DNA of 53,184 nt, from positions 1 through 53,184 of the forward strand of contig JBBTWV010000012.1 of assembly GCA_038062615.1 (NCBI GenBank), given 5' to 3'. Within the stretch, counting starts at the first letter, position 1; each line of letters opens with the position of its first letter. Positions 30,935 to 53,113 of this stretch are shown here, piece by piece. The notes below the pieces were generated by a model. The model did no database searches, had not been told where the DNA came from, and worked only from the letters and a program-made list of their open reading frames with translations. The DNA comes from Patescibacteria group bacterium (GTDB lineage Bacteria > Patescibacteriota > Gracilibacteria > UBA1369 > UM-FILTER-53-11). The position numbers were made by a program, and so were the translations under genes.

Positions 30935-32644
30935 ATGACATCACATGCAGATACTGGGAAAAAAGCCCCCCCGGAAGTGACGGTGGCACCGAGAGTAACT
31001 CCAGCGGTTAGGCAGGCAGCTATAGAGGTGCTTTCATTAACTAAAAAAGAATTAGCGAAACCTGGTGTTTTAGAGCATGAAAAAAGCGTATTAAACGAAA
31101 ATGTGGCACAAACTGTGGCCTTAATAGAAAGACTCATGGCTGCAGCAGGAGTTAGGGTAACCTTCCGTCAAGGAGAAGATCCAAGTGCAGTTGTTGTAAA
31201 TGTAGGCCTCGCCGGCAAGGAGCCCGCAATTGCTGGTACCGTTGCCGAGCCAGCCGCTACCGTGCCAGCCGCGACAGCACCCGCCGTGCCATCAGCCGCA
31301 ACCGCCGCGGCCGTGCCAGCCGTGGTAACATTGCCCGACCCTTCACCTGTACTGAGATCAGAAGAACCTACAGTCCCAACGGTGTCCCCCAAACAACCGG
31401 CCGTGCCGGCGATCACGCACACCACCCCGGCCCCGGAGGCAGTCCTGCCCGATAACGCCGCTCCGACGTCGTACTTGGCGCCGGGAGGTAACATGGGGGA
31501 GCTCTCGTGGGATGCCCTCGTGAGGGGATCTGAAAGGCCGCCCGAAATGGCGGCGGTATTGAGGGCCGCCGGGGTATCCGGTTTCGACATCTCAAGCGTG
31601 GAGTTGCCAGTCGTCGAGGACGAGCCCATGGCTACGGAGGTCGCCGCCGCTCAGTTCCCGCTCACCTCTGCCGTCGTAACCCCGCCAACCGTCGCCACGA
31701 CACCGTTCACCTCCCCCGCCGCACCGGTCGCGACCCAACAAGTTGCCCCAACACCCGCGTGGTTGCTCGATACGAGTTATCCAGATGATTTATTAACAAA
31801 TACACCACCTATTGCCGCGCCGGTGAGCGCGACCCACACACCACCCGTCGCCGTCCCCGCGGTGCCATTCCCACTCCAAGCCGCACTGGCGAACGTAAGC
31901 GCGACTGCGAACATCCCGCAAGCCCCACCGGCCCCGGAGCTGGATGATGAGCCTGAGGCGCTTGCAAAACCCCTGGCCCCGATCGCAGAGCCCGCCGCCA
32001 CCCAGCCGACGGCGTTCGCCCAACCCCCGTCGTTCCAATCGGCGGCATTTCCAGTCACAGCCGCTCCGGTGAGCGCGGCCCAAACCCCTCGCTTCCCTAC
32101 ACCGTCTGCCCCGCCAACGGCGTTCGCCCCGCCGCCCCGCAATGTAACGCCATCCACCGCGCCAGTAGCAACAGAAGAAAATGCTGAGGAAGATGATCTT
32201 CGTGGCTTAAGAGGCACATCATTTTTGACGGGAAGAAGAATACTCGGAATCGCGGCGCTTATTGGAGGCTTAGCTTTGGCAGCAGTCGCGCTACGCCACT
32301 ATACGGATGATGAGACGAAGGCGGAGAATAGCACAACAACTCCAGCGGACACCCAGCCGCAACAAGCGCAAGGCGCCGGGCAGAACGCTGCCGCGCCAGC
32401 GGCCCCCAAGCTACAGCAGTCCGACAGCATCATAGGCACCGGCTGCAAGCAGTCGGAGGCCTCCTCGGAGATCTGGACAGTCTGGTGTGACAGCGTAAGT
32501 GTCGCCGTCCGGGAAATCCTGGCGGATCGGACGGGTAGGCTGGAAGTGACGCAAGGCGGCGTCACCTATAAGGCAGAAGTTAAGTTGCCTGGAGAGCTCG
32601 CGCCCATCGGCGACAATGGCAAGATCGTCTTCAAGAAGGAGTAG
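30935..32644 (+). CDS. Pro/Ala-rich single-pass membrane protein (569 aa)
   Basis: About 370 aa of low-complexity P/A/T/V sequence, then one TM span (ILGIAALIGGLALAAVAL), then a ~100-aa C-terminal domain. The GC-rich core contrasts with AT-rich flanks. Confidence 0.6.
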   Translation: MTSHADTGKKAPPEVTVAPRVTPAVRQAAIEVLSLTKKELAKPGVLEHEKSVLNENVAQTVALIERLMAAAGVRVTFRQGEDPSAVVVNVGLAGKEPAIAGTVAEPAATVPAATAPAVPSAATAAAVPAVVTLPDPSPVLRSEEPTVPTVSPKQPAVPAITHTTPAPEAVLPDNAAPTSYLAPGGNMGELSWDALVRGSERPPEMAAVLRAAGVSGFDISSVELPVVEDEPMATEVAAAQFPLTSAVVTPPTVATTPFTSPAAPVATQQVAPTPAWLLDTSYPDDLLTNTPPIAAPVSATHTPPVAVPAVPFPLQAALANVSATANIPQAPPAPELDDEPEALAKPLAPIAEPAATQPTAFAQPPSFQSAAFPVTAAPVSAAQTPRFPTPSAPPTAFAPPPRNVTPSTAPVATEENAEEDDLRGLRGTSFLTGRRILGIAALIGGLALAAVALRHYTDDETKAENSTTTPADTQPQQAQGAGQNAAAPAAPKLQQSDSIIGTGCKQSEASSEIWTVWCDSVSVAVREILADRTGRLEVTQGGVTYKAEVKLPGELAPIGDNGKIVFKKE

Positions 32645-35724: not shown

Positions 35725-36459
35725 TCATTCAAGTCTCCTTATTTCGTCTTGCAAAAACATCAGTACTTCTTGCTTGAGGATTTTTCTTATTTTGCCAAAA
35801 GTTTCTGCCGGTAAAAGGACGTTTAAATCTTGGTCTAAAATAGTTTGAGTAATGTGTTTTTGAATAAAGGTGATGAGGCTTTTAAGGAACGGACGGACTT
35901 TTTTACCGGTTCGCTCCTCAATAACTGCAACAAGATAAGGGTCTCCTCGCAGAAAAAACGCATGGATATCGTAAATGTCTCTGCCGGCAATGGAGCGATG
36001 CTTTTTAAAACGATCCATAACCGCCACAAGCTTATTGGCAAACATCGTAGGAACCGTATGGCAGTGCAAAATGCGATCAATTTCAGCAAAACGCACCGGC
36101 TCATATTCATTCCTTTGCGGCGCCGGAAAGCTGGCATCAAACTCGATGGTGCTCCGCTCACCCGGCCGATTTTCATACTTGAGAAAATACTGCGGCGCTT
36201 TTTTGCTTTGCTGTGAAATTTTAAGACCGAGTTTTTGAAATATTTTTTCTAGGTTCTGCCGCGCTTTTGGCATCTGCTCCGGCGCCAAAAAATCAAAATC
36301 AAGATCAATGGAAAAACGATCAATGAGCCCGCGCATGGCGGCACAGGTGCCACCCTTAAATCGCAAATTGGCTGTTAAAAATGCATCATCCGCGACTGCC
36401 TGCAGAATGCGATACAACCAGGCTTTGTGAATGGCATCAGTGGGTTTTGGCAGAATCAT
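35725..36459 (-). CDS. abiEii: AbiEii/AbiGii-family nucleotidyltransferase toxin
   Basis: LRFKGGTCAAMRGLIDRFSIDLDFDF is the hallmark GGT...R.S.DLDF. The start at MILPKP overlaps the upstream antitoxin gene by 23 nt. Confidence 0.8.
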   Translation of the reverse strand: MILPKPTDAIHKAWLYRILQAVADDAFLTANLRFKGGTCAAMRGLIDRFSIDLDFDFLAPEQMPKARQNLEKIFQKLGLKISQQSKKAPQYFLKYENRPGERSTIEFDASFPAPQRNEYEPVRFAEIDRILHCHTVPTMFANKLVAVMDRFKKHRSIAGRDIYDIHAFFLRGDPYLVAVIEERTGKKVRPFLKSLITFIQKHITQTILDQDLNVLLPAETFGKIRKILKQEVLMFLQDEIRRLE

Positions 36460-37048
36460 AACGTTTTGGGGTAAGAGGATATCCGACTTTTTGTTGAATA
36501 TCGCGAACTTTTTTCCAGTCCACCGGATGATCAAAATGATACGACGGATTGAAATAAAGCATATCAGCAATGGCTCTCTCGGGTGAGGCTTGGAGCAGAC
36601 CACCGCGAAGGGCAACGCCTTCTGAGTTATAGAGGTAACGATCGGCCAGCTGGCGGCTTTTAAAAAGGTAGCCGAAAAGAGTAAAAATTCTGGAACGATT
36701 CGCGATGAAAGTGTAATAATTGGTCACTGGCGAAATATAGCCTTCTTGAGAGAGAATCGTCTCGGTACTCACAAAGCAAAACCGATGGAGAGCCTTTGAG
36801 CCAAGGAAGAGCGGACTCAGGTCTTGAGGTGGTATGAGAGAGTAAAAACCACGATAGATTCCGTGGAGGAGCCCTTGTTGGACGTACCTGTTCAGCGTAA
36901 TGCGAAGGGTATTTTTATCTTGAATTTGCCACAGATTAGCCATGTCCGCGATATGAAAAATCTTTTCTCCTTTGGAAGCAAGAAGCGCAATTCTCTTGCC
37001 AGTTATGTTACCGTTTAATGTACTCATATGTACATTATAGCGTAACAT
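36437..37048 (-). CDS. abiEi: AbiEi-family antitoxin/transcriptional regulator
   Basis: About 200 aa. N-terminal winged-helix-like FHIADMANLW..LNRYVQQGLLHGIYRGFYSL. It lies immediately upstream of AbiEii. Confidence 0.65.
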   Translation of the reverse strand: MLRYNVHMSTLNGNITGKRIALLASKGEKIFHIADMANLWQIQDKNTLRITLNRYVQQGLLHGIYRGFYSLIPPQDLSPLFLGSKALHRFCFVSTETILSQEGYISPVTNYYTFIANRSRIFTLFGYLFKSRQLADRYLYNSEGVALRGGLLQASPERAIADMLYFNPSYHFDHPVDWKKVRDIQQKVGYPLTPKRYDSAKTH

Positions 37049-40837: not shown

Positions 40838-41050
40838 TTATAATCTCGAAAGTATTTTTATAAATTCATCCTTGGAAATACCAAGGACTCGCAGATTATT
40901 CATTATGATAAAAGGCGGCAATACTCGATCTCGCGGAATAACAAGGGGACGGCTTAAGCCTTTTTTGTAATAAATGCGATGATCTCCTTTTTCTCTTTTA
41001 TAAAGAAATTTCTCAAATTTTTTCCAATGCAAGGAACCAAATTGCCCCAT
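40838..41050 (-). CDS. hicA: HicA-like (YcfA family) toxin
   Basis: 70 aa. WKKFEKFL..EKGDHRIY..RPLVIPR resembles HicA GSHH..+.+P motifs. It is paired with a HicB-like ORF 1 nt upstream. Confidence 0.55.
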   Translation of the reverse strand: MGQFGSLHWKKFEKFLYKREKGDHRIYYKKGLSRPLVIPRDRVLPPFIIMNNLRVLGISKDEFIKILSRL

Positions 41051-41051
41051 A

Positions 41052-41348
41052 TTAAAGTGCTACAGGAACACGAACATCAAAAGACTTTTGAGAAATAATT
41101 TGCGGTGGCTCCCATTTCTTCTTAACTTTTATCCAACCAAGATCCTGCAATACCTCCTCCAATGTATTGTTTTCAATAAGTTCTTCAAAAAAAATATCAA
41201 CCATCTCAGCAAATCGCTTTTGGGCCTGCTTTGCATTCTTACCAGTTGTTGATAAATCAAGAGCGGGAGAATACGCAATATATACTTTTCCCTGCTTTAT
41301 AAGATCTACCTGTAATTTAACCTGAACTCCTGGCTCAGCGATGATCAT
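41052..41348 (-). CDS. hicB: HicB-like (UPF0150) antitoxin
   Basis: KVYIAYSPALDLSTTGKNAKQAQKRFAEMVDIFFEEL fits the HicB N-domain pattern. A TATAAT lies 9 nt upstream of the ATG. Confidence 0.55.
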   Translation of the reverse strand: MIIAEPGVQVKLQVDLIKQGKVYIAYSPALDLSTTGKNAKQAQKRFAEMVDIFFEELIENNTLEEVLQDLGWIKVKKKWEPPQIISQKSFDVRVPVAL

Positions 41349-44552: not shown

Positions 44553-47500
44553 ATGATTAATCGTGTGACGCAACAACTGGAGGCCGCGAGTTTTCTGAAG
44601 CATATGGAAGCGCATGCCGAAGAATATCCTCAAGATGAAACAGGTGCGTTACATGCCAGAATAGATGAGAGGCGCGGCAGAACTCGTCTTGAGTGCGCGG
44701 CGGCGTGTTTTGAAGATAATGAAACTTTTCCTGACATGAGTCGGTTGTATCTTGAGCATACCGCGACTACAAGAGAACGTATTTCAAGAGTCACGGATGC
44801 ATTGCGAGATACCGATACCGTTTCACTGCCGTCGTGGCTGACGCTTCGCCGGTCACAAACAAGATTTTTATCGAAATTGCGCGACTATTTTTCGGGCGAT
44901 GTTTTTAGAAGATCCGGCTTTGTAAAATATCCTCCGGGAATCGGTAAGACAGTATTGATCGCTCTTATGATACGTTCTCTCATTGAGCGCATTAACGGAA
45001 CCTCTCTTGTTTTGAGTCAGCGTCGAAAGATCAATGATCAAAACTACCATGAAATTTTATCTTTACAGGACGAGGGCGCGAGCGTAAAAATGGCAGCAAG
45101 CGTTTGCCCAGAGGAAACACCCGATGTTACTATCGCCGCATATACAAAGCTCATTCTGGATAAAGCTGCCAACCTGTCCAGACGCATTTTAAAGGATCAC
45201 TATGACGTGATTTTTTTGGATGAATGCCACAGATCTTTCGGCTTTGAAGCCATCAGAGTTTTACGCGAATATTATCCCGACAGTGTTCTTGTAGGTTTAT
45301 CTGCAACTCCCTATATAGGAGCATCGTTTTCAAGCCAAACACAAATGCGTTCTGCATTTCATTATATTGAAGGAGAAATAGACAACCTTCCCTTGCCGGA
45401 AGCCTGTGCAAGCGGTGAGATCGCTCCTTTGCGAACCATGACGGTTATGCTTAAGGGCACCGATGATGATTCTGAGGATTCGCCTGAGGAAGACGCTGAT
45501 GAATGTGAACCCCCGTTTTTGAGTGTTGATACTAAGACTAGAATTGCAACTGCAATTTGCAAGGATTATATCCCGGCCGGTGAGCAGGGAATTATTTTTC
45601 TTCGGAACAGGCTTGAGGCAAGTTTAGTTGCCGATGCTCTTAAAGCAGCCGGTCTTAAAGCCGAATTTATTTGTGGCGGCGCAGGGACAGCATTTTCTCA
45701 AACAACATATATGAGAAGAAAGGAAGTCGAAGACAGACTTCGTCGATTTCAAGCCGGTGATACACAATATATCACGAATGTTGAGTCTTTAATTGAAGGT
45801 GCAAACTTTGAAAATTTAAAACATGTTATTAATTTAAGTGATACCCGTTCAGTCTGGGAGTTTGAACAGATGATCGGTCGCGCAACGCGATTGGATCCAA
45901 AAGACCCCGAAAAAATCGCTACTATTTGGGATACGGTAGTGGAAGGGAGGAAAGGAGGCCGGTGTACCCTGATCGGCTTGGCGGCTTTTTATGGGCAGCA
46001 TAAAGAAGAATATCTGAACGGAGAGGTAATCTTTGGTCCGCCAGAAAGGAAACAAGTTTGCATGCCTAGCTTTGCTCCATTTTCCTTGTTCGGCATCGAT
46101 GCCGAATTATCAGAAATAATTTTAGCCGAACAGATAGATAGAATAGCGACCCCGATGGATCACGAATATTTCAAAAAAATTGATGAAAATGTGAAGCCGG
46201 ATTTGGCTGCGTTTGCACGCGCTGCCGGAGTTGGAGGCGCACGAAGCTTAACAGGCAGTCATCTTTCCTGGAGCGCAACATGCATGAACGGCGAGACTAT
46301 TACATTTGAAACCTATGTTGCGCGGTGGGCTGCAGCTATGCAAATGGCAAAAGACACTACGTCGGCTAGGGAAAACATATGTGACTTTGTATATAAACTG
46401 CTGCATTTTGCCGGATGCACCGTGAAAAAAATGGACGCACAGTATTATGAAGATACTGAAGGTAATGTAAAACCTGATATGCGCCGGTTTGCAGGGGAGG
46501 CGGGTTTGGAAAGCCCTGCAGAATTAACGACGACACATTTTTCAGAAAAGATCACGTGCGAAAGCGGAAAGTATTTGAGCTTGCAAGCCTACGTGATTAA
46601 GTGTGCGCTTAAGACGAAAAGGGCTAAAACCCATGAAGAGGCCAAAGGGAACCAGGGAAGGCTTTTGCGTGAACTTTTACAGCGTTGCGGGTACGCCGTG
46701 AAAGAAAAAGCCGAAGTCAAGATCGAAATGGATGCGGCATACTTTAAAAACATTCAAGGCAATGTAATTCCCGATATGCAAGGCTTTGCCAATGCGGCCG
46801 GTGTTAAGAGTCCGGCAGATTTAACGACAACTGATATTCAGAAAAAAAGCAGATGTCAAAACGGGGAAATTCCTAATTTAGAAACATACATTTGTCGATG
46901 GGCAGTGAGTCTTGGGCATGCAAAAAATAATGACGATGTGCACTCGAAAATTTCCAAAATGCTCGATCAGCTTTTACGATACTGCGGATATGCAATCGCC
47001 GAAAAGATTGAGTTTGAGGAAATGGATGAGGCTTATTTTAAGAACATGAAAGGTACTGTAGAGCCGGATGTCGCTGGTTTCGTGGCTGCTGCCGGAGTTT
47101 CATCTGCTGCAGATCTTGCAGGCGTACAACACCGTTCTGTAAGAAGCAGGTGTAAAAATGGAGAAAGTCCAATGTGGCAAACCTATGTTGCAAGGTGGGC
47201 AAAAGCGCTTAAGCATGTAAAAAATGCAAAGGATGCACTCAAGGAATTTGATAAAATCAGCTGTAAGTTTTTGAGATATTGCGGATATGAGGTTGAAGAA
47301 AAAGAGGAATTTTTGAAAATGGACAAAGAGTACTTCATGAAAGTGCGACAAAATCTCATGCCAGACGTTGCTGGTTTTCTGGCTGCGGCAGGTGTTATGA
47401 GCGTTGCCGATCTTAGGGGGAGAAGGCATTTTGATGTTGAAAGCAGATGTAGTAATGGCGAAATTATTTCTTTGAAAAGGTTTATCTGTCGATGGTCAGT

Positions 47501-48101
47501 AGCCACGGGAAGAGTAAAAATCCAGAAGGACGCTGAAAGATGGTGCACACGTTTGCTAAGAGAATTTGTTGAATGGTATCAATCTCTCGATCTCTCGATC
47601 CCTCCGGCGGCGAATGTCCTTTCCGATGTGGTCTGCAAAGAACTTGAACCGGTTGTTAGAAAATCTGCCGAACGTTATAGAAAATTCGTAGATGTTGGCG
47701 ATATTGTGAACGAAGTTTTTTTGAGGATCTTGGAAGTGTTGCAGCAAGATCCATCAGCCAGATTTGAAGCAGATGCTCTTGAGGAGCTTGTTGGTGAAGC
47801 CGCGGCACATTTGAGAAGAGATTCAGGAGACCACGGGGATGTGGAGTATATCGATACCTTCGCTCCACATAATCGATTTGATGGAGATTCTAAAGAAACC
47901 GCAGGTCACGTAAGTTTAATCAGCGATGTGGTAGAGAGACTTTCCGAGCCTGCAAGAACAATTATCTCAATGCAATTGGCTGGACATTCCGAGCAAGAAA
48001 TCGCAACAGCTTTAAAAATCAAAAAACCAAAAGTAGCATCGTTGATTAAAAATGCTCATGAAGATTTTCGCAGATTGTATCAAATCAAAGAAGATTCCTA
48101 A
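44553..48101 (+). CDS. SF2 helicase (ResIII/DEAH-like) fused to 5 tandem ~97-aa repeats and a sigma-70-like C-terminal module
   Basis: Motif I PPGIGKT (about 44931), II DECH (45219-45230), III SAT, VI QMIGRATR (45867-45890). Repeats span 46155-47583. The C-terminus has DIVNEVFLRILE (region-2-like) and LSEPARTIISMQLAGHSEQEIATALKIKKPKVASLIKNAHEDFRRL (region-4 HTH-like). Confidence 0.75.
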   Translation: MINRVTQQLEAASFLKHMEAHAEEYPQDETGALHARIDERRGRTRLECAAACFEDNETFPDMSRLYLEHTATTRERISRVTDALRDTDTVSLPSWLTLRRSQTRFLSKLRDYFSGDVFRRSGFVKYPPGIGKTVLIALMIRSLIERINGTSLVLSQRRKINDQNYHEILSLQDEGASVKMAASVCPEETPDVTIAAYTKLILDKAANLSRRILKDHYDVIFLDECHRSFGFEAIRVLREYYPDSVLVGLSATPYIGASFSSQTQMRSAFHYIEGEIDNLPLPEACASGEIAPLRTMTVMLKGTDDDSEDSPEEDADECEPPFLSVDTKTRIATAICKDYIPAGEQGIIFLRNRLEASLVADALKAAGLKAEFICGGAGTAFSQTTYMRRKEVEDRLRRFQAGDTQYITNVESLIEGANFENLKHVINLSDTRSVWEFEQMIGRATRLDPKDPEKIATIWDTVVEGRKGGRCTLIGLAAFYGQHKEEYLNGEVIFGPPERKQVCMPSFAPFSLFGIDAELSEIILAEQIDRIATPMDHEYFKKIDENVKPDLAAFARAAGVGGARSLTGSHLSWSATCMNGETITFETYVARWAAAMQMAKDTTSARENICDFVYKLLHFAGCTVKKMDAQYYEDTEGNVKPDMRRFAGEAGLESPAELTTTHFSEKITCESGKYLSLQAYVIKCALKTKRAKTHEEAKGNQGRLLRELLQRCGYAVKEKAEVKIEMDAAYFKNIQGNVIPDMQGFANAAGVKSPADLTTTDIQKKSRCQNGEIPNLETYICRWAVSLGHAKNNDDVHSKISKMLDQLLRYCGYAIAEKIEFEEMDEAYFKNMKGTVEPDVAGFVAAAGVSSAADLAGVQHRSVRSRCKNGESPMWQTYVARWAKALKHVKNAKDALKEFDKISCKFLRYCGYEVEEKEEFLKMDKEYFMKVRQNLMPDVAGFLAAAGVMSVADLRGRRHFDVESRCSNGEIISLKRFICRWSVATGRVKIQKDAERWCTRLLREFVEWYQSLDLSIPPAANVLSDVVCKELEPVVRKSAERYRKFVDVGDIVNEVFLRILEVLQQDPSARFEADALEELVGEAAAHLRRDSGDHGDVEYIDTFAPHNRFDGDSKETAGHVSLISDVVERLSEPARTIISMQLAGHSEQEIATALKIKKPKVASLIKNAHEDFRRLYQIKEDS
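46155..47583 (+). repeat. Five in-frame tandem coding repeats (276-297 nt each)
   Basis: Units start at 46155, 46431, 46728, 47022 and 47319. Each opens MD.(E/A/Q)Y(F/Y) and carries V.PD+..F...AGV.S.A(D/E)L, C.NGE, Y+.RWA and L(L/R).CGY. Confidence 0.85.
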
Positions 48102-48118: not shown

Positions 48119-48823
48119 CTACTTCCCTACTTCCTGCAGGGTTTTATTCACATCCAACGGGATTCCAGGACCCATCGTCGTGGTTACCGTCATGGATTGA
48201 ATAAAAATACCCTTGGCTCCCGCCGGCTTGTTTTGCAAAATACCGCGCACAAAAGCCTTTAAATTTTCTTCTAAATGAGCAGGGCTAAAGGAAACCTTCC
48301 CAAAAATATTGTGAAGGTTGGCCAACTTATCCATACGGAACTCCACCTTTCCCTTAATAATTTCACCAATCGTTTTAGAAATATCAGTAGTTACCGTTCC
48401 AGCCTTTGGATTTGGCATAAGACCTTTCTGACCCAGCGTCTTGGCAACTTTACCAAGGTTTTTCATGACGTCCGGAGTAGCCACCGCCACATCAAAATCC
48501 AACCAACCTTTGGCAATCTTCTCTACCAAATCATCAGCTCCAGCCTCAATCGCACCCGCTGCCTTAGCAGCCTTTTGATTGGCCTCCATAACGAAAGCAA
48601 TAACACGAACCGTCTTACCCGTACCATTTGGCATCACTACCGTTCCACGCAAAAGCTGATCTGCCTGTTTTGGATCCAAGCCCAGCTTCATGTGGACCTC
48701 ACAAGAAGAATCGAACTTGGTGGTAGAAGTTTTCTTAAGGAGCTCAATTGCTTCGCCCAAGGCGTAAGCCTGTTTTTCTATTAACTTTTTGACTGCTACA
48801 TATTTTTTACCGCGCTTTTTCAT
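48119..48823 (-). CDS. rplA: 50S ribosomal protein L1
   Basis: KRGKKY, GTVVMPNGTGKTVRVIAF, and a length of 234 aa. Confidence 0.95.
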   Translation of the reverse strand: MKKRGKKYVAVKKLIEKQAYALGEAIELLKKTSTTKFDSSCEVHMKLGLDPKQADQLLRGTVVMPNGTGKTVRVIAFVMEANQKAAKAAGAIEAGADDLVEKIAKGWLDFDVAVATPDVMKNLGKVAKTLGQKGLMPNPKAGTVTTDISKTIGEIIKGKVEFRMDKLANLHNIFGKVSFSPAHLEENLKAFVRGILQNKPAGAKGIFIQSMTVTTTMGPGIPLDVNKTLQEVGK

Positions 48824-49383: not shown

Positions 49384-50079
49384 CTAAAGGGTTAACAGCT
49401 GAATAAACTTTTTTATCTGAGCGTGATAGGTTTTTACATAGGCAAAGCCATAAATGGTCTTCCCTATTTTGACCGTCAGGAAGGCTTCATCAGGCTTCTT
49501 GGCGTGGTTGATATAAAAGGAGCGATCTCCGTACGCGTTTGTTTCGTTGAGTGATAAATCTATATAGGGTTTTGTTTTGTTTTGCAAGAGAACATAAAGC
49601 TGAAGTGCGCGAATCTCATCTCGAAGGGATATTTCGGTGACGGCGGCAACAGGGGTGGCGCCGGGCGAAGCATCCTGTGAAACCTCAAAAAAATTGATGC
49701 CATCCACGGGAATTTGAGAAATATCGAGGAGCTGGTAAAGTTTCCCTTCAAAATGCTTCTCGGTGGGGCTTCCTGTAAAACCGGTAGCAGTGAATAATTC
49801 TGAGGTGAGTTTTGCAGAAGGGCTGGTGGTAATTGGCAATACCACGACCGGAGGCGACGGCTGAGCTGGGGGCGGAGAATCGTCCAAAGGCGCAGGAGGA
49901 GCAGATGATGCCAAGCCTGCCTCACCAGGAGAATCACTGGTTACACTTTCATCAAAAGAAACCACACTCGCGTTACCATCACCAAAATATTGACGCACCG
50001 CCAAATCAGCCATGACGGTTATAACCGAGACAACAAGAATTACGGTAAAAATAGTAAATTTATTCACAAACGTGAGCAT
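49384..50079 (-). CDS. Membrane-anchored hypothetical protein inserted between nusG and rplK
   Basis: Anchor FTIFTVILVVSVITVMA. Pro-rich linker APPAPLDDSPPPAQPSPP. No motif recognised. Confidence 0.55.
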   Translation of the reverse strand: MLTFVNKFTIFTVILVVSVITVMADLAVRQYFGDGNASVVSFDESVTSDSPGEAGLASSAPPAPLDDSPPPAQPSPPVVVLPITTSPSAKLTSELFTATGFTGSPTEKHFEGKLYQLLDISQIPVDGINFFEVSQDASPGATPVAAVTEISLRDEIRALQLYVLLQNKTKPYIDLSLNETNAYGDRSFYINHAKKPDEAFLTVKIGKTIYGFAYVKTYHAQIKKFIQLLTL

Positions 50080-51038: not shown

Positions 51039-51114
51039 GGAATTTGCTCGCCGAATAGAAATTTTCCTTCGCTCCGTCACGCCTTGCGTGACTACGCTTC
51101 GGACCGCAAATTTC
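51039..51114. repeat. LH-related hairpin element, copy 4 (short, different apex)
   Basis: Arms AATTTGC..CCGAA / TTCGG..GCAAATT. Apex GTCACGC-CTT-GCGTGAC. The reverse complement, GCGAAATTTGCGGTCCGAAGCG, resembles copy 1 GCGAAAACGCCGAAGCG. Confidence 0.5.
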
Positions 51115-51138
51115 GCACTTATCCACAAGGTTATTTTC

Positions 51139-51147
51139 TGGTATAAT
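51139..51147 (+). promoter_or_regulatory. Extended -10 (TGgTATAAT), 6 nt before the ATG (leaderless configuration)
   Basis: TGGTATAAT-GGTGGG-ATG(51154). Confidence 0.5.
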
Positions 51148-51153
51148 GGTGGG

Positions 51154-52107
51154 ATGCAAAAAAAGACAAAAAACAGGCTTTTAAGAGAACTGCTGATTTT
51201 TTTGCCGGTGCTCGGCATTATTTTGGGCTTAGACTCCATCTACCTTGCGCATGCCGCGGGAGGTTTTACTCCGGTTTCTGACGGACTCTGCGGGGAAGGC
51301 GCATTCCCATGCCCCGAAGGTGAAACTGGCGTTGCCATAGCCAAAAGCTTGGGTGCCCGCATTTTTGATAATACTCGTTATATCATCGGTGCCGTATCCG
51401 TGATTCTCATCGTAGTAGCCGGAGTGAAGTTGATTACGAGCGGCGGCAATGAAGAAGTTTTTGAAAAGCAAAAAACGACGCTCATTTATTCCGTCATTGG
51501 ACTCTTTATGGTTGGCGCCGCTGGCGATCTCGCCATGATTTTTGAAGTAGACCGCGGCGGATTCCTTAAAGATCCTAACGTCTCTATTCAAAAAAGTCGG
51601 CTGTTTACGCGGACGGCAGAAGTCGTTCTCACCTTTATCAAATACATTATTGGCAGTATTTCCGTGCTTTCTATTGTGAGAAATGGCTTGCGTCTTGTGG
51701 TTTTGGGAGGCAACGAAGAAGAAGTGGGCAAGGACAAAAAGAATATTTTCTACGGCTTACTGGGTTTGGTAATTATTTTGATGGCGAACCCCATTGTGAA
51801 CAAAGTATTTTTCAAAATTGATACCACCAAATATCCAGGACTGGAGCCGGTTAGGCCGGGAATTGATACCGCGCGTTTGATTCAGGAAATTACCGGCATT
51901 ACCAATTTGATTGCGGCGATTGCCGGACCTGCCGCGCTGCTTTCATTGGTAGCTGGAGGACTCATGTATGTGCTTGCCGCAGGCGAAGAAGAAAAAACCG
52001 GCAAAGCCAAAAAACTTATGACGTGGTCACTTGTGGGACTCGTGATTATTTACGGCGCGTTTGCCATTGTGAGCACGTTTGTAGCCAGACAGTTTGAAGG
52101 GATTTAG
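51154..52107 (+). CDS. Triple TrbC/VirB2-like (T4SS-pilin-like) domain membrane protein
   Basis: Signal/anchor, then three units of TM-helix, G(G/A)(N/E)EE..K.K loop, TM-helix. Examples: IIGAVSVILIVVAGVKLITSGGNEEVFEKQKTTLIYSVIGLFMV and LLSLVAGGLMYVLAAGEEEKTGKAKKLMTWSLVGLVIIYG. Confidence 0.6.
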   Translation: MQKKTKNRLLRELLIFLPVLGIILGLDSIYLAHAAGGFTPVSDGLCGEGAFPCPEGETGVAIAKSLGARIFDNTRYIIGAVSVILIVVAGVKLITSGGNEEVFEKQKTTLIYSVIGLFMVGAAGDLAMIFEVDRGGFLKDPNVSIQKSRLFTRTAEVVLTFIKYIIGSISVLSIVRNGLRLVVLGGNEEEVGKDKKNIFYGLLGLVIILMANPIVNKVFFKIDTTKYPGLEPVRPGIDTARLIQEITGITNLIAAIAGPAALLSLVAGGLMYVLAAGEEEKTGKAKKLMTWSLVGLVIIYGAFAIVSTFVARQFEGI

Positions 52108-52117
52108 TCTTCAAAAT

Positions 52118-53113
52118 ATGAACAAAATATTTATACAATTTCTTACGTTTTTAATTGCCACGAGCCTTTTACTCGGCATCAATTCTTTTGCCATAGCCGC
52201 TGAGGAAACAAAAGGTGCCAGCACTCCGGTGACAGACTTGAATGAAGTTTTAGGCAAAACGCCGCTGAGCAATTTTGAAGGAAAAATTCATCAACTTTCC
52301 AGCGTGGATCCCGGTGCCGATGTCATTACCACCATCATTTTTACGGCAATCGATTTCATGAAATATTTGATTGGTGCCATTGCCGTAATTTTCATTACGG
52401 TCAGCGGCATCAAACTTATTACGTCTGGCAAAAAAATCGATGAAGTTTCGGAAAAAGAAAAAGAAAATCTTAAATTTATTATTTACGGACTTATTTTGAT
52501 TATTACCGCGGATGAGCTGGTGACCAAAGTATTTTTTGGCGATTACGGCGAGTGCGTTGCCAGCGCTTCCAATGCGCAAGAATGCGCCAAAGTGGGCGGC
52601 AGTTTGGTGAAAGGCGTTTATAGTTTGATTTTGGCCATGATGGCAACGGTAGGAATTTTCGTAGTAGTGCTCTCGGGTTTCCGGCTGGTTACTTCTACCG
52701 GAGATGAAGAAGTCATCAAAAAACAAAAATCACGGATGACCATGGCCGTGGTAGGACTCATCGTTGCGGCGCTTGGAGAATTTGTGGTGAAAGGAATTGT
52801 TTTTCCCGAAGCCGGAACACAAGGCATTGACGTGGAAGCCGCCAAAAAACTCGTCTACAACTTTACTAACTTTGTAGCGGCGTTTATTGGAGCATCAGCG
52901 TTTGTGATGCTCTTTTACGGCGGGTACTTGTATGTGATGTCCTTTGGCAACGAAGAGCAAACCGGCAAGGCCAAAAAAATCATCGTTGGCGCCATTGTTG
53001 GCATGCTCATCGCATTTGCGGCCTTTGGGGTGGTGGCAACAGTAACTTCACTCAACCCAGGAAGAACCAACATCAACTTGCCGCAAAATTTACCTGGACT
53101 CCCCAATAAGTAG
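52118..53113 (+). CDS. Triple TrbC/VirB2-like domain membrane protein, tandem paralog
   Basis: Same three-unit layout, for example LIGAIAVIFITVSGIKLITSG, FRLVTSTGDEEVIKKQKSRM and YLYVMSFGNEEQTGKAKKIIVGAIVGMLIAF. Confidence 0.6.
   Translation: MNKIFIQFLTFLIATSLLLGINSFAIAAEETKGASTPVTDLNEVLGKTPLSNFEGKIHQLSSVDPGADVITTIIFTAIDFMKYLIGAIAVIFITVSGIKLITSGKKIDEVSEKEKENLKFIIYGLILIITADELVTKVFFGDYGECVASASNAQECAKVGGSLVKGVYSLILAMMATVGIFVVVLSGFRLVTSTGDEEVIKKQKSRMTMAVVGLIVAALGEFVVKGIVFPEAGTQGIDVEAAKKLVYNFTNFVAAFIGASAFVMLFYGGYLYVMSFGNEEQTGKAKKIIVGAIVGMLIAFAAFGVVATVTSLNPGRTNINLPQNLPGLPNK

Follow-up and report, generated by a model that had tools for sequence, protein, structure and literature searches.

The fusion gene and its surroundings

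The DNA analysed here, referred to as the window, is a stretch of 53,184 nucleotides. On its forward strand it carries an open reading frame of 1182 aa (P0001; 44553..48101, +), uninterrupted under translation table 11, which joins a helicase, a repeat array and a sigma-like tail in a single polypeptide. The DNA of this gene was also found in two further assemblies (L007, NCBI GCA_964364405.1; L008, ENA ERZ1292636) and is identical in all three, suggesting that the sequence is reliable. The host is a member of Candidatus Peribacteria (CPR), a groundwater "candidate phylum" bacterium, and the gene is genuine and chromosomal. Its first 96 residues (44553..44840, +) form a family-specific N-terminal region, in which MxNRVTxxLxAASFL is common to the relatives P0004 and P0005; this region gave no Pfam or NCBIfam match.

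The genes downstream, rplA (48119-48823) and rplK, are encoded on the minus strand and converge on the fusion gene, leaving a gap of 17 nt. The original prediction placed the gene where rplJ and rplL normally follow rplA, and this is literally true: neither was detectable within the window with approximate E. coli queries. The flanking genes are housekeeping genes (DUF1385, dut, tmk, folD, purF, purD, rplA/K, nusG and secE), and the fusion gene has a GC content of 0.44-0.47, the same as the window on average. It is not flanked by any integrase, transposase or tRNA. Toxin-antitoxin genes (AbiEii) are located approximately 8 kb away.

The ATPase core

The SF2 ATPase/translocase core spans aa 97-460 (44841..45932, +) and consists of two RecA-like lobes assigned by Pfam, ResIII (aa 97-254; 64.4 bits, cutoff 22.5, E 1.6e-17) and Helicase_C (aa 342-447; 31.6 bits, cutoff 23.5, E 2.1e-7), both scoring above the curated thresholds. 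Reading the translation directly located motif I PPGIGKT (aa 127-133; 44931-44951), motif II DECH (aa 223-226; 45219-45230), motif III SAT (aa 250-252; 45300-45308) and motif VI QMIGRATR (aa 439-446; 45867-45890), all on the + strand. The four motifs are intact, and the family alignment showed that their residues are invariant across eight family members. The complete helicase motif set proposed earlier was thus confirmed by both the direct reading and the Pfam scores.

The core also matched the NCBIfam models for the EcoAI type I R subunit (E 1.5e-13) and RadD (E 1.7e-9), the PDB entries 7clg_A ('putative helicase'; E 2e-7) and 3h1t_A and, weakly, Pfam SWI2_SNF2 (E 6.4e-8). In sequence, the ATPase core is closest to the type I/IV restriction motors (HsdR/EcoAI R; PDB 3h1t and 7clg), but these matches cover the helicase lobes only, and neither a nuclease domain nor HsdM/HsdS-type partners were seen. 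The possibility that the protein is the motor subunit of a restriction enzyme was considered and rejected: the EcoAI R model scored 50 bits against a cutoff of 550 and the hsdR model 17.7 against 284, a nuclease domain is missing and the neighbours are housekeeping genes. The protein is a lineage-specific ATPase of the ResIII/type-I-restriction-motor class and most plausibly a translocase, with DNA as the presumed substrate.

The core runs into a conserved, family-specific extension (ATIWD..G..C T..GL..YG....NGE..FGP), which together with an acidic linker (pI 4.1) leads to the repeats (45915..46154, +; family alignment). The invariant columns of the extension are A456, T457, W459, D460, C471, T472, G475, L476, Y480, N489, G490 and F494.

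The repeat array and the helicase-repeat family

Five repeat units of 92-99 aa follow, with pairwise identities of 30-50%: R1 (aa 535-626; 46155..46430, +), R2 (aa 627-725; 46431..46727, +), R3 (aa 726-823; 46728..47021, +), R4 (aa 824-922; 47022..47318, +) and R5 (aa 923-1016; 47319..47600, +), the last of which is without the terminal CGY motif. In a leave-one-out profile test the units scored 83.8, 85.6, 121.5, 108.6 and 84.6 bits, respectively (84-122 bits, compared to a maximum of 8 bits among 500 shuffles), and all five starts were found in frame as had been predicted. The repeats are undetectable at the DNA level. R3 was chosen for modelling; the AF2 model (pLDDT 94, pTM 0.84) showed five helices and a small hairpin at C-x-NGE. 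No relative of the unit was found in Pfam, among PDB sequences or by fold in PDB and BFVD, in agreement with the earlier statement that the fold is unrecognised. The analysis defines a new, confidently modelled all-helical repeat domain of approximately 90 aa, and the array presumably serves as a modular binding or spacer array.

Very few proteins combine this helicase with the repeats; they make up a small family within Candidatus Peribacteria that does not extend beyond one bacterial class, and the repeat domain, present in one to six copies among the relatives, is unique to this family. The repeats are common to seven relatives, each of which ends at its last repeat; in P0002-P0007 the end of the last repeat is the C-terminus. 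The sigma-less relatives thus terminate exactly where the sigma module of the window protein begins, at the equivalent of the R5 end. The relatives occupy a different housekeeping neighbourhood in each genome, and one of them (P0007) adjoins a gene for an MvaI/BcnI-type endonuclease.

The original prediction had also raised the idea that the gene might belong to an inserted, possibly defence or mobile, module interrupting the rplKA-rplJL cluster. The similarity of the helicase core to type I and type IV restriction enzyme motors, the absence of rplJ and rplL downstream of rplA, the AbiEii genes and the endonuclease gene beside P0007 would fit such a module. However, no nuclease, methylase or specificity partner was found, base composition is uniform at the window average, the flanks are housekeeping genes free of bordering mobility genes, and the relatives, limited to one class, are surrounded by housekeeping genes that vary from case to case. 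A search of PADLOC-DB v2 with the fusion protein returned only generic helicase-core matches (REase_I and mREase_IV, approximately 3e-9). The suggestion was not supported, and we consider such an insertion very improbable. A known anti-phage defence system was likewise rejected, the PADLOC-DB v2 matches being generic to the helicase core (E 3e-9 or weaker) and the neighbouring genes giving no match.

The C-terminal tail resembles ECF-type sigma factors

The tail (aa 1017-1182, 166 aa) contains both peptides that the original prediction had likened to ECF-sigma regions 2 and 4.2. It comprises a sigma2-like domain (aa ~1030-1090; 47640..47822, +), spanned by a TIGR02937 match from aa 1030 and by hhalign alignments to the sigma factors P0014 and sigmaE; an acidic, disordered linker (aa 1091-1115; 47823..47897, +; pI 4.5, pLDDT <50); and a sigma4-like helix-turn-helix (HTH) domain (aa 1116-1182; 47898..48098, +; pLDDT 78-86) with a Pfam Sigma70_r4_2 match at aa 1123-1168. 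A sigma3 domain is absent. The TIGR02937 (sigma70-ECF) match pairs aa 1030-1170 with profile positions 9-159 of 165 (E 6e-8), although the tail alone scored 32.4 bits against a curated cutoff of 42.9; several ECF subfamily models also match collinearly. Sigma70_r4_2 gave 24.0 bits (cutoff 25.7, E 2.9e-5), and Sigma70_r2 gave no Pfam match in the tail.

An exhaustive phmmer search with the tail among 1.84e9 representatives returned only P0013 (E 8.5e-12), a 143-aa stand-alone sigma-like protein whose region 4 passes the Pfam Sigma70_r4_2 gathering score (30.9 bits), and P0014 (E 2e-4), a bona fide sigma factor. Alignment by hhalign was collinear over sigma2 and sigma4, at 95.3% against P0014 and 92.9% against sigmaE. 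In the structural model of the tail, whose input alignment included one true sigma factor and is therefore mildly biased, sigma2 was of low confidence (pLDDT 50-67) and only the sigma4 HTH was modelled confidently. Foldseek with the full-length tail model returned almost exclusively ECF sigmas as top matches, at E values of only 0.03-0.5, and superposed the sigma4 domain on that of SigL (3hug) with a TM of 0.83-0.86, an rmsd of 1.3-2.0 Å and 30% identity. The structural neighbours among sigma factors are SigL, SigH, SigK, BldN, sigmaE, AlgU and CnrH. Taken together, the phmmer, TIGR02937, hhalign and Foldseek results uphold the predicted homology to ECF-type sigma factors over sigma2 and sigma4, but every sigma-specific score of the window protein lies below its curated cutoff. 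Judged by sequence, the tail is a sigma2-sigma4 module of the ECF type, though a divergent one, and its resemblance to sigma factors is statistically real.

The tail resembles the ECF (group 4) sigma-70 factors in its sigma2-linker-sigma4 layout lacking sigma3, a region 2.1/2.2-like motif, a region 4.2-like HTH and the TIGR02937 match. It differs from them in falling below every curated cutoff, in its divergent region 2.3/2.4 and in having no adjacent anti-sigma gene. Some ECF sigmas carry fused extra domains, such as the C-terminal extensions of the ECF41/42 types; the extra part here is an N-terminal helicase and repeat region of approximately 1000 aa rather than a small regulatory extension.

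Within sigma2, the region 2.1/2.2-like stretch DVGDIVNEVFLRILE is the best conserved part, both in the window and in its ortholog at a second locus (L013, described below). In contrast, the helix of region 2.3/2.4, although there, is divergent: its usual aromatic residues are replaced, and the module may therefore have lost the ability to melt promoters or even to bind core. It is conceivable, though rather unlikely, that the module does not bind RNA polymerase at all and is a degenerate fold reused for partner or DNA binding, as in PhyR, or an HTH that targets the helicase to DNA sites. The sub-cutoff scores, the missing Sigma70_r2 match, the divergence of region 2.3/2.4, the confident model for the sigma4 HTH only and weak PhyR_sigma-like matches of the tail and P0013 (far below cutoff) are consistent with this reading. 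In PhyR, a sigma-like domain sequesters an anti-sigma factor (anti-anti-sigma), and the window protein resembles it in that a degenerate ECF-like sigma2-sigma4 module is covalently joined to an unrelated domain. However, the partner here is a helicase instead of a receiver, and neither a receiver domain nor an anti-sigma-like (NepR-like) partner gene was seen near the fusion gene. Moreover, the region 2.1/2.2-like stretch, whose counterpart in sigma factors contributes most to core binding, is the part of sigma2 conserved best in both orthologs, and the complete sigma2-linker-sigma4 layout is kept. The protein is probably an RNA-polymerase-tethered translocase, a role suggested by the identity of its domains.

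A second locus and the junction repeats

Among billions of database proteins, the helicase-repeat-sigma architecture was found in two places only, the window and L013. The three-part architecture set out in the original prediction is real and very rare. At L013, P0013 directly follows a repeat unit that also belongs to the 'RWA' subtype (E 1.7e-13), and the sigma module is split from the last repeat, as assembled, by a frameshift within a perfect 10-bp tandem repeat. When one 10-bp unit is removed, the product aligns with aa 933-1178 of the window protein in a single HSP (E 2e-28). We read the association of helicase, repeats and sigma module, as far as the sequences tell, as genuine and conserved across the two loci; the sigma module is an addition that begins precisely where the last repeat ends, in the one subclade that comprises the window and L013.

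In the window, the junction carries the tandem DNA repeat ATCTCTCG (period 8, 2.9 copies; 47582..47604, +), detected by TRF and identical in the three assemblies. When one 8-bp unit was deleted in silico, the helicase-repeat frame ran into a TGA after a further 17 codons. The GTG codon at aa 1026 (47628..47630, +), which is in frame, could then serve as the start of a stand-alone sigma-like ORF. No convincing Shine-Dalgarno sequence was found upstream of this GTG. The L013 junction consists of perfect CAAAAGAACC repeats (10 bp, 3.1 copies, array 31 bp), and one unit fewer or two more fuses the ORFs. As in phase-variable loci, a unit whose length is not a multiple of three lies inside the coding region at both loci (8 bp in the window, 10 bp at L013), and a one-unit change toggles the fused and split states in silico. 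In the DNA examined, TRF matches with such periods occur at 0.094 per kb for a score of at least 39 and at 0.015 per kb for a score of at least 60. Their presence in the same stretch of approximately 60 nt in both orthologs, with unrelated units (rough joint p 1e-5 to 4e-3), is unlikely by chance. Whether the sigma module is fused or split off may depend on slippage in the junction repeat.

These observations bear on the possibility that the locus is a two-gene system, with a small ECF-like sigma gene downstream of a helicase-repeat gene, that was fused by slipped-strand mispairing and is possibly phase-variable; the fused state of the window would then perhaps be recent or neutral and not the functional form. 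The split produced by losing one unit in the window with the GTG as a start, the split ORFs of L013 as assembled, where the sigma frame has an ATG further upstream that could yield a complete separate sigma, and the shared position of rare repeats at both junctions all agree with it. However, approximately three copies per site is far below the number in classical contingency loci, duplications in linkers are tolerated and build up in any case, the copy number in the window is constant across the three assemblies and the GTG lacks a good ribosome-binding site. At L013, sigma homology does not begin at the called ATG but reaches back to the repeat itself, and the helicase tail that is out of frame there resembles noise; a broken fusion accounts for this more readily than two genes by design. 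In addition, the copy number at L013 could reflect an assembly collapse, the array length of 31 bp being equal to the k-mer size of Logan assemblies. We therefore regard a two-gene system as a serious alternative, albeit a somewhat unlikely one. The sigma module is so far seen at just two loci, with the second out of frame as assembled, and the partners may for this reason normally be separate proteins.

A model for the fusion protein

The explanation that we favour, to which we give about an even chance, is that a lineage-specific SF2 motor, a unique repeat array and a divergent ECF-type sigma module act together, with the sigma module docking the motor onto the RNA polymerase core and the junction repeat setting the fused or split state. 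According to this model, region 2.2 of sigma2 would dock on the beta-prime clamp helices and sigma4 on the beta flap, on -35-like DNA or on both, and ATP-driven translocation would act on or beside transcription initiation complexes. The copy number of the short junction repeat, whose unit is not a multiple of three, would determine whether the sigma module is fused or split off.

The fusion would then be a sigma-tethered counterpart of RNA polymerase-associated motors such as RapA or Mfd. RapA/HepA (Swi2/Snf2) and Mfd/TRCF are likewise SF2 ATPases, which the window protein would resemble, on the proposed reading, in being targeted to RNA polymerase, and its core shows the weak SWI2_SNF2 match. 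RapA and Mfd use dedicated RNA polymerase-interaction domains, whereas the window protein has a sigma module in their place and a core closer to the type I/IV restriction motors and RadD.

A bolder version would have the ECF-like module, with its degenerate melting region 2.3/2.4, recruit RNA polymerase and -35-like DNA while the SF2 motor opens or remodels the DNA at initiation in a TFIIH/XPB-like manner, slippage switching the protein between fused and free forms. The usual view is that bacterial sigma factors need no ATP for promoter opening, sigma54 being the exception. The TFIIH translocase XPB, and sigma54 with its AAA+ activators, offer a functional analogy only, that of an ATPase working with a promoter-recognition factor at initiation; the homology of XPB to the window protein is limited to SF2 membership, and the likeness in promoter opening is an analogy. 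We consider this version improbable.

To our knowledge, the transcription machinery of the CPR is almost unstudied. With one ortholog fused and the other split, and a difference between them in junction repeats prone to frameshifts, the window and L013 form a natural comparison in which the importance of the fusion can be tested. If true, the covalent linkage of a motor ATPase to a sigma2-sigma4 module would represent a new way of delivering ATP-driven DNA work to RNA polymerase.

The window gene encodes an intact SF2 motor

The gene at 44553-48101 (+) is an unbroken ORF encoding a protein of 1182 aa (table 11). Identical gene DNA was found on an 18.5-kb contig of the NCBI MAG GCA_964364405.1 (L007) and on the 7.3-kb ENA contig 'Hain_PNK108_H32_02um' (L008; ERZ1292636), both derived from Hainich groundwater. 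Its presence in these two further public assemblies indicates that the reading frame is not a one-off assembly error. The four helicase motifs quoted in the original prediction were found at aa 127-133, 223-226, 250-252 and 439-446, and an alignment of the eight family members showed that their key residues are invariant. The Pfam search of the window protein gave ResIII at 64.4 bits and Helicase_C at 31.6 bits, both above the gathering scores. These results demonstrate that the SF2 motor of the window protein is intact. The helicase core most closely resembled RadD and the motors of restriction enzymes of types I and IV, with matches to EcoAI R (1.5e-13), to PADLOC REase_I and mREase_IV (both about 3e-9) and to PDB 7clg and 3h1t. 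The matches were confined to the two RecA lobes, and the window protein has neither a nuclease domain nor partner genes.

The repeat array is family-specific

The five repeat starts that had been proposed are all in frame. The units (R1-R5) span 92-99 aa, with pairwise identities of 30-50%. Leave-one-out profiles gave every window unit 84-122 bits, compared with at most 8 bits for 500 shuffles of each unit. The window repeats are undetectable at the DNA level and are therefore old. A profile built from the window units alone found the repeat domain in the relatives of the protein (E down to 3e-15), and the array is specific to this family.

The AlphaFold2 model of R3, based on an alignment of 31 units (A2), is very confident (pLDDT 94, pTM 0.84) and predicts five helices and, at the conserved C-x-NGE motif, a small hairpin. 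The repeats had been described as of unknown fold, and Foldseek searches with the model revealed no similar structure in either the PDB (best E 1.3, TM about 0.25) or BFVD (best E 0.65); a PDB sequence search with the array also gave no meaningful match. The modelled fold is therefore unmatched in these two databases, and it is not claimed as a new fold. A helix-hairpin-helix identity, raised by initial weak matches to DUF4332 and DUF6964, was dropped because only one of the 31 units touched these models, no Pfam family recurred across the units and the array is not basic, its charge being close to neutral.

The sigma module is added where the relatives end

Among 5.8 billion protein clusters searched, only seven relatives of the window protein were identified (P0002-P0008), with 31-36% identity and, according to an iterated profile, one to six repeat units each. 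The family matches in genome collections are assigned to the class Candidatus Peribacteria (phylum Peregrinibacteriota; CPR). The relatives are set among housekeeping genes, and their neighbours vary by genome (DnaB and LysRS; ValRS and DNA polymerase III alpha; a T2SSE ATPase; IF3 and L35; an MvaI/BcnI-type endonuclease). In P0002-P0007 the C-terminus is the end of the last repeat unit, and it is exactly where these relatives end that an ECF-like sigma2-sigma4 module has been added in the window protein. A separate sigma gene beside the sigma-less relatives was also considered and rejected, the downstream ORFs on five of their contigs (L001, L004, L005, L014 and L015) not being sigma-like.

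Several features of individual relatives were observed. The protein repeats of P0002 are visible in DNA, with a 279-bp period, 4.3 copies and a TRF score of 1036 (L001 9661-10841, equal to L009 7577-8757), which indicates that arrays in this family expand or homogenise by recent tandem duplication. P0008, the most divergent member (L015 5001-7934), has one repeat followed by ~350 residues (aa ~630-977) that gave no Pfam match; this region may be a different add-on at the place where the window protein bears its sigma module. Downstream of P0007, a member with only two repeats, lie a controller-like HTH_3 gene and a gene for an MvaI/BcnI-type restriction endonuclease (L014 7534-8469), the sole defence-like neighbours seen for the family. 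Near P0004 lie a second, unrelated 904-aa ResIII/Helicase_C gene (L004 2520-5234, minus strand) and a gene encoding a Sigma70_r4 plus HARE-HTH protein (L004 12168-13289, minus strand). The latter lies on the opposite strand, 1.2 kb downstream, and may reflect either coincidence or a looser helicase-sigma linkage.

The C-terminal tail is a divergent homolog of ECF-type sigma factors

The tail (aa 1017-1182), in which the original prediction had noted a likeness to sigma regions 2 and 4, matched the NCBIfam model TIGR02937 (sigma70-ECF) over aa 1030-1170, on profile positions 9-159 of 165 (E 6e-8), and a dozen ECF subfamily models also matched it collinearly. However, curated thresholds were not reached: the tail scored 32.4 bits on TIGR02937 (cutoff 42.9) and 24.0 bits on Pfam Sigma70_r4_2 (cutoff 25.7), and Pfam Sigma70_r2 did not match it. 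When 1.84 billion representatives were searched exhaustively with phmmer, just two other proteins emerged. One is P0013 (143 aa), which shows 34-35% identity across nearly the whole tail (E 8.5e-12) and has a region 4 above the Pfam cutoff. The other, P0014, is a genuine sigma factor, scoring 74 bits on TIGR02937 and passing both Sigma70_r2 and Sigma70_r4. With hhalign, a profile combining the tail with its homologs aligned to P0014 across sigma2 and sigma4 (95.3% probability, E 2e-8) and to a manually entered sequence of E. coli sigmaE (92.9% probability, E 3.6e-7). A PDB sequence search with the tail gave no meaningful match.

The AlphaFold model of the tail was built from a three-sequence alignment that includes P0014, which introduces a mild bias. 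Its overall pLDDT is a mediocre 62, with 78-86 in the last ~65 residues and low values in the three sigma2 helices. In Foldseek, almost all of the top 50 PDB matches to this model were ECF or related sigma factors (SigL, SigH, SigK, BldN, sigmaE, AlgU, CnrH and SigW); the alignments were full-length, although the E values were only 0.03-0.5. Sigma4 of the model superposed on that of SigL with a TM of 0.83-0.86, an rmsd of 1.3-2.0 A and 30% identity. Taken together, there is good support for the tail being a homolog of sigma-70 factors that has the ECF layout.

A region 2.1/2.2-like segment of the tail (DVGDIVNEVFLRILE) is conserved, and the region 2.3/2.4 helix is kept with its usual aromatic residues gone. 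A rather improbable alternative is that a sigma-like fold has been recruited as a decoy or as a plain HTH, as in PhyR. In the sigma4 HTH-coding sequence (KIKKPK; window 48014-48032), TRF reported a non-3n repeat, AAAAACCA x2.4 (score 31), which is probably a mere lysine-codon run.

A second locus pairs the repeat array with the sigma module

P0013 is encoded on L013, a 979-bp Logan contig from SRR22388013. Upstream of it, an ORF open at the contig edge terminates in a family repeat unit (E 1.7e-13) with the 'F.RWA' signature, found among the examined sequences otherwise only in the window repeats. Thus, the sole other known carrier of the sigma module is also joined to a repeat array. The repeat and sigma reading frames are offset within a perfect tandem repeat, CAAAAGAACC x3.1 at 263-293, the only TRF match on this contig. 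Removal of one 10-bp unit in silico, or addition of two, gave an in-frame fusion, which BLASTP aligned in one segment to window aa 933-1178 (E 2e-28); the segment takes in sigma-homologous residues upstream of the called ATG of P0013. The R5 plus tail regions of the two organisms share only ~30% identity. These results demonstrate that the association of repeat array and sigma module is conserved in two organisms. The sigma-bearing architecture was found at these two loci only, in an exhaustive search of a library representing about 15 billion proteins, and scans of JGI metagenomes with the tail and with an R5 plus tail alignment that included the L013 fusion revealed no relatives.

The boundary between R5 and the sigma module in the window gene also carries a tandem repeat, ATCTCTCG x2.9 at 47582-47604 (TRF). 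Loss of one 8-bp unit in silico made the helicase-repeat ORF stop at a TGA 17 codons further on; an in-frame GTG at 47628 is a possible start of a separate sigma ORF after such a loss, and no good ribosome-binding site was seen upstream of it. The junction repeats of both loci are frameshift-capable. Across the 138 kb of DNA analysed, non-3n tandem repeats of comparable quality were rare, with frequencies of 0.094 per kb for scores of at least 39 and 0.015 per kb for scores of at least 60. The two orthologs have such a repeat at the same short junction, with unrelated unit sequences, a coincidence unlikely by chance (roughly 1e-5 to 4e-3). As a caveat, duplications build up more readily in linkers than in ordinary coding sequence. 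In addition, the L013 array (31 bp) is as long as the k-mer used in Logan assemblies, and the copy number of the array, and with it the frame, may therefore reflect assembly collapse. A two-gene system that is fused in the window through slippage, and is possibly phase-variable, is a tentative explanation that we consider unlikely, less so than the decoy.

Genomic neighbourhood of the window gene

The minus strand carries secE, nusG, a 231-aa ORF, rplK and rplA, in a run that stops 17 nt away from the stop codon of the window gene; neither rplJ nor rplL was detectable across the whole 53-kb window. The gene had been suspected to belong to an inserted defence or mobile module. Uniform GC content, housekeeping genes on the flanks, the lack of any specific PADLOC match and borders with neither an integrase nor a tRNA all argue against such a module, which now appears very improbable.

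Other features of the window are recorded here. The 231-aa ORF (49384-50079, minus strand) separates nusG from rplK in a secE-nusG-rplK-rplA cluster that is otherwise canonical; its N-terminus is hydrophobic, it has a Pro/Ser-rich stretch and no Pfam match, and it is also called as a gene in the public assemblies. Beside this cluster, two adjacent ORFs (51088-52107 and 52094-53113, plus strand) encode paralogous membrane proteins of ~339 aa, and the 51088-52107 protein contains three T4SS_pilin-matching stretches (TrbC/VirB2-like; E 7.6e-25), an unusual triple-pilin-repeat organisation. A GC spike at 31-33 kb (0.61 and 0.545, compared with about 0.45 elsewhere in the window) overlaps a 569-aa ORF without Pfam match (30935-32644, plus strand), in which tandem repeats of 24/27 bp (TRF scores 68-71; notably at 31244-31322) are rich in GCC/GCG codons. 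About 8 kb upstream of the helicase gene are an AbiEii-type nucleotidyltransferase toxin gene (35725-36615; E 6.6e-20) and an overlapping 203-aa partner ORF (36437-37048), both on the minus strand. A pair of small ORFs (70 aa and 98 aa) at 40838-41348 is toxin-antitoxin-like by arrangement, with no Pfam match at E <=1e-3 and only a weak PADLOC match, to PDC-S01.

A possible sigma-delivered translocase

With moderate confidence, we infer that the window protein is a sigma-delivered translocase, in which the sigma module would tether the SF2 motor to the RNA polymerase core and/or to -35-like DNA, making it functionally comparable to RapA or Mfd. The decoy, two-gene and defence explanations are not mutually exclusive with such a tethered translocase. 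To our knowledge, no helicase-sigma fusion has been described. RNA polymerase-associated SF2 motors and domain-fused ECF-like sigmas are known kinds. The novelty of the window protein rests on the rarity of its architecture in databases, and the protein also carries an uncharacterised repeat domain.
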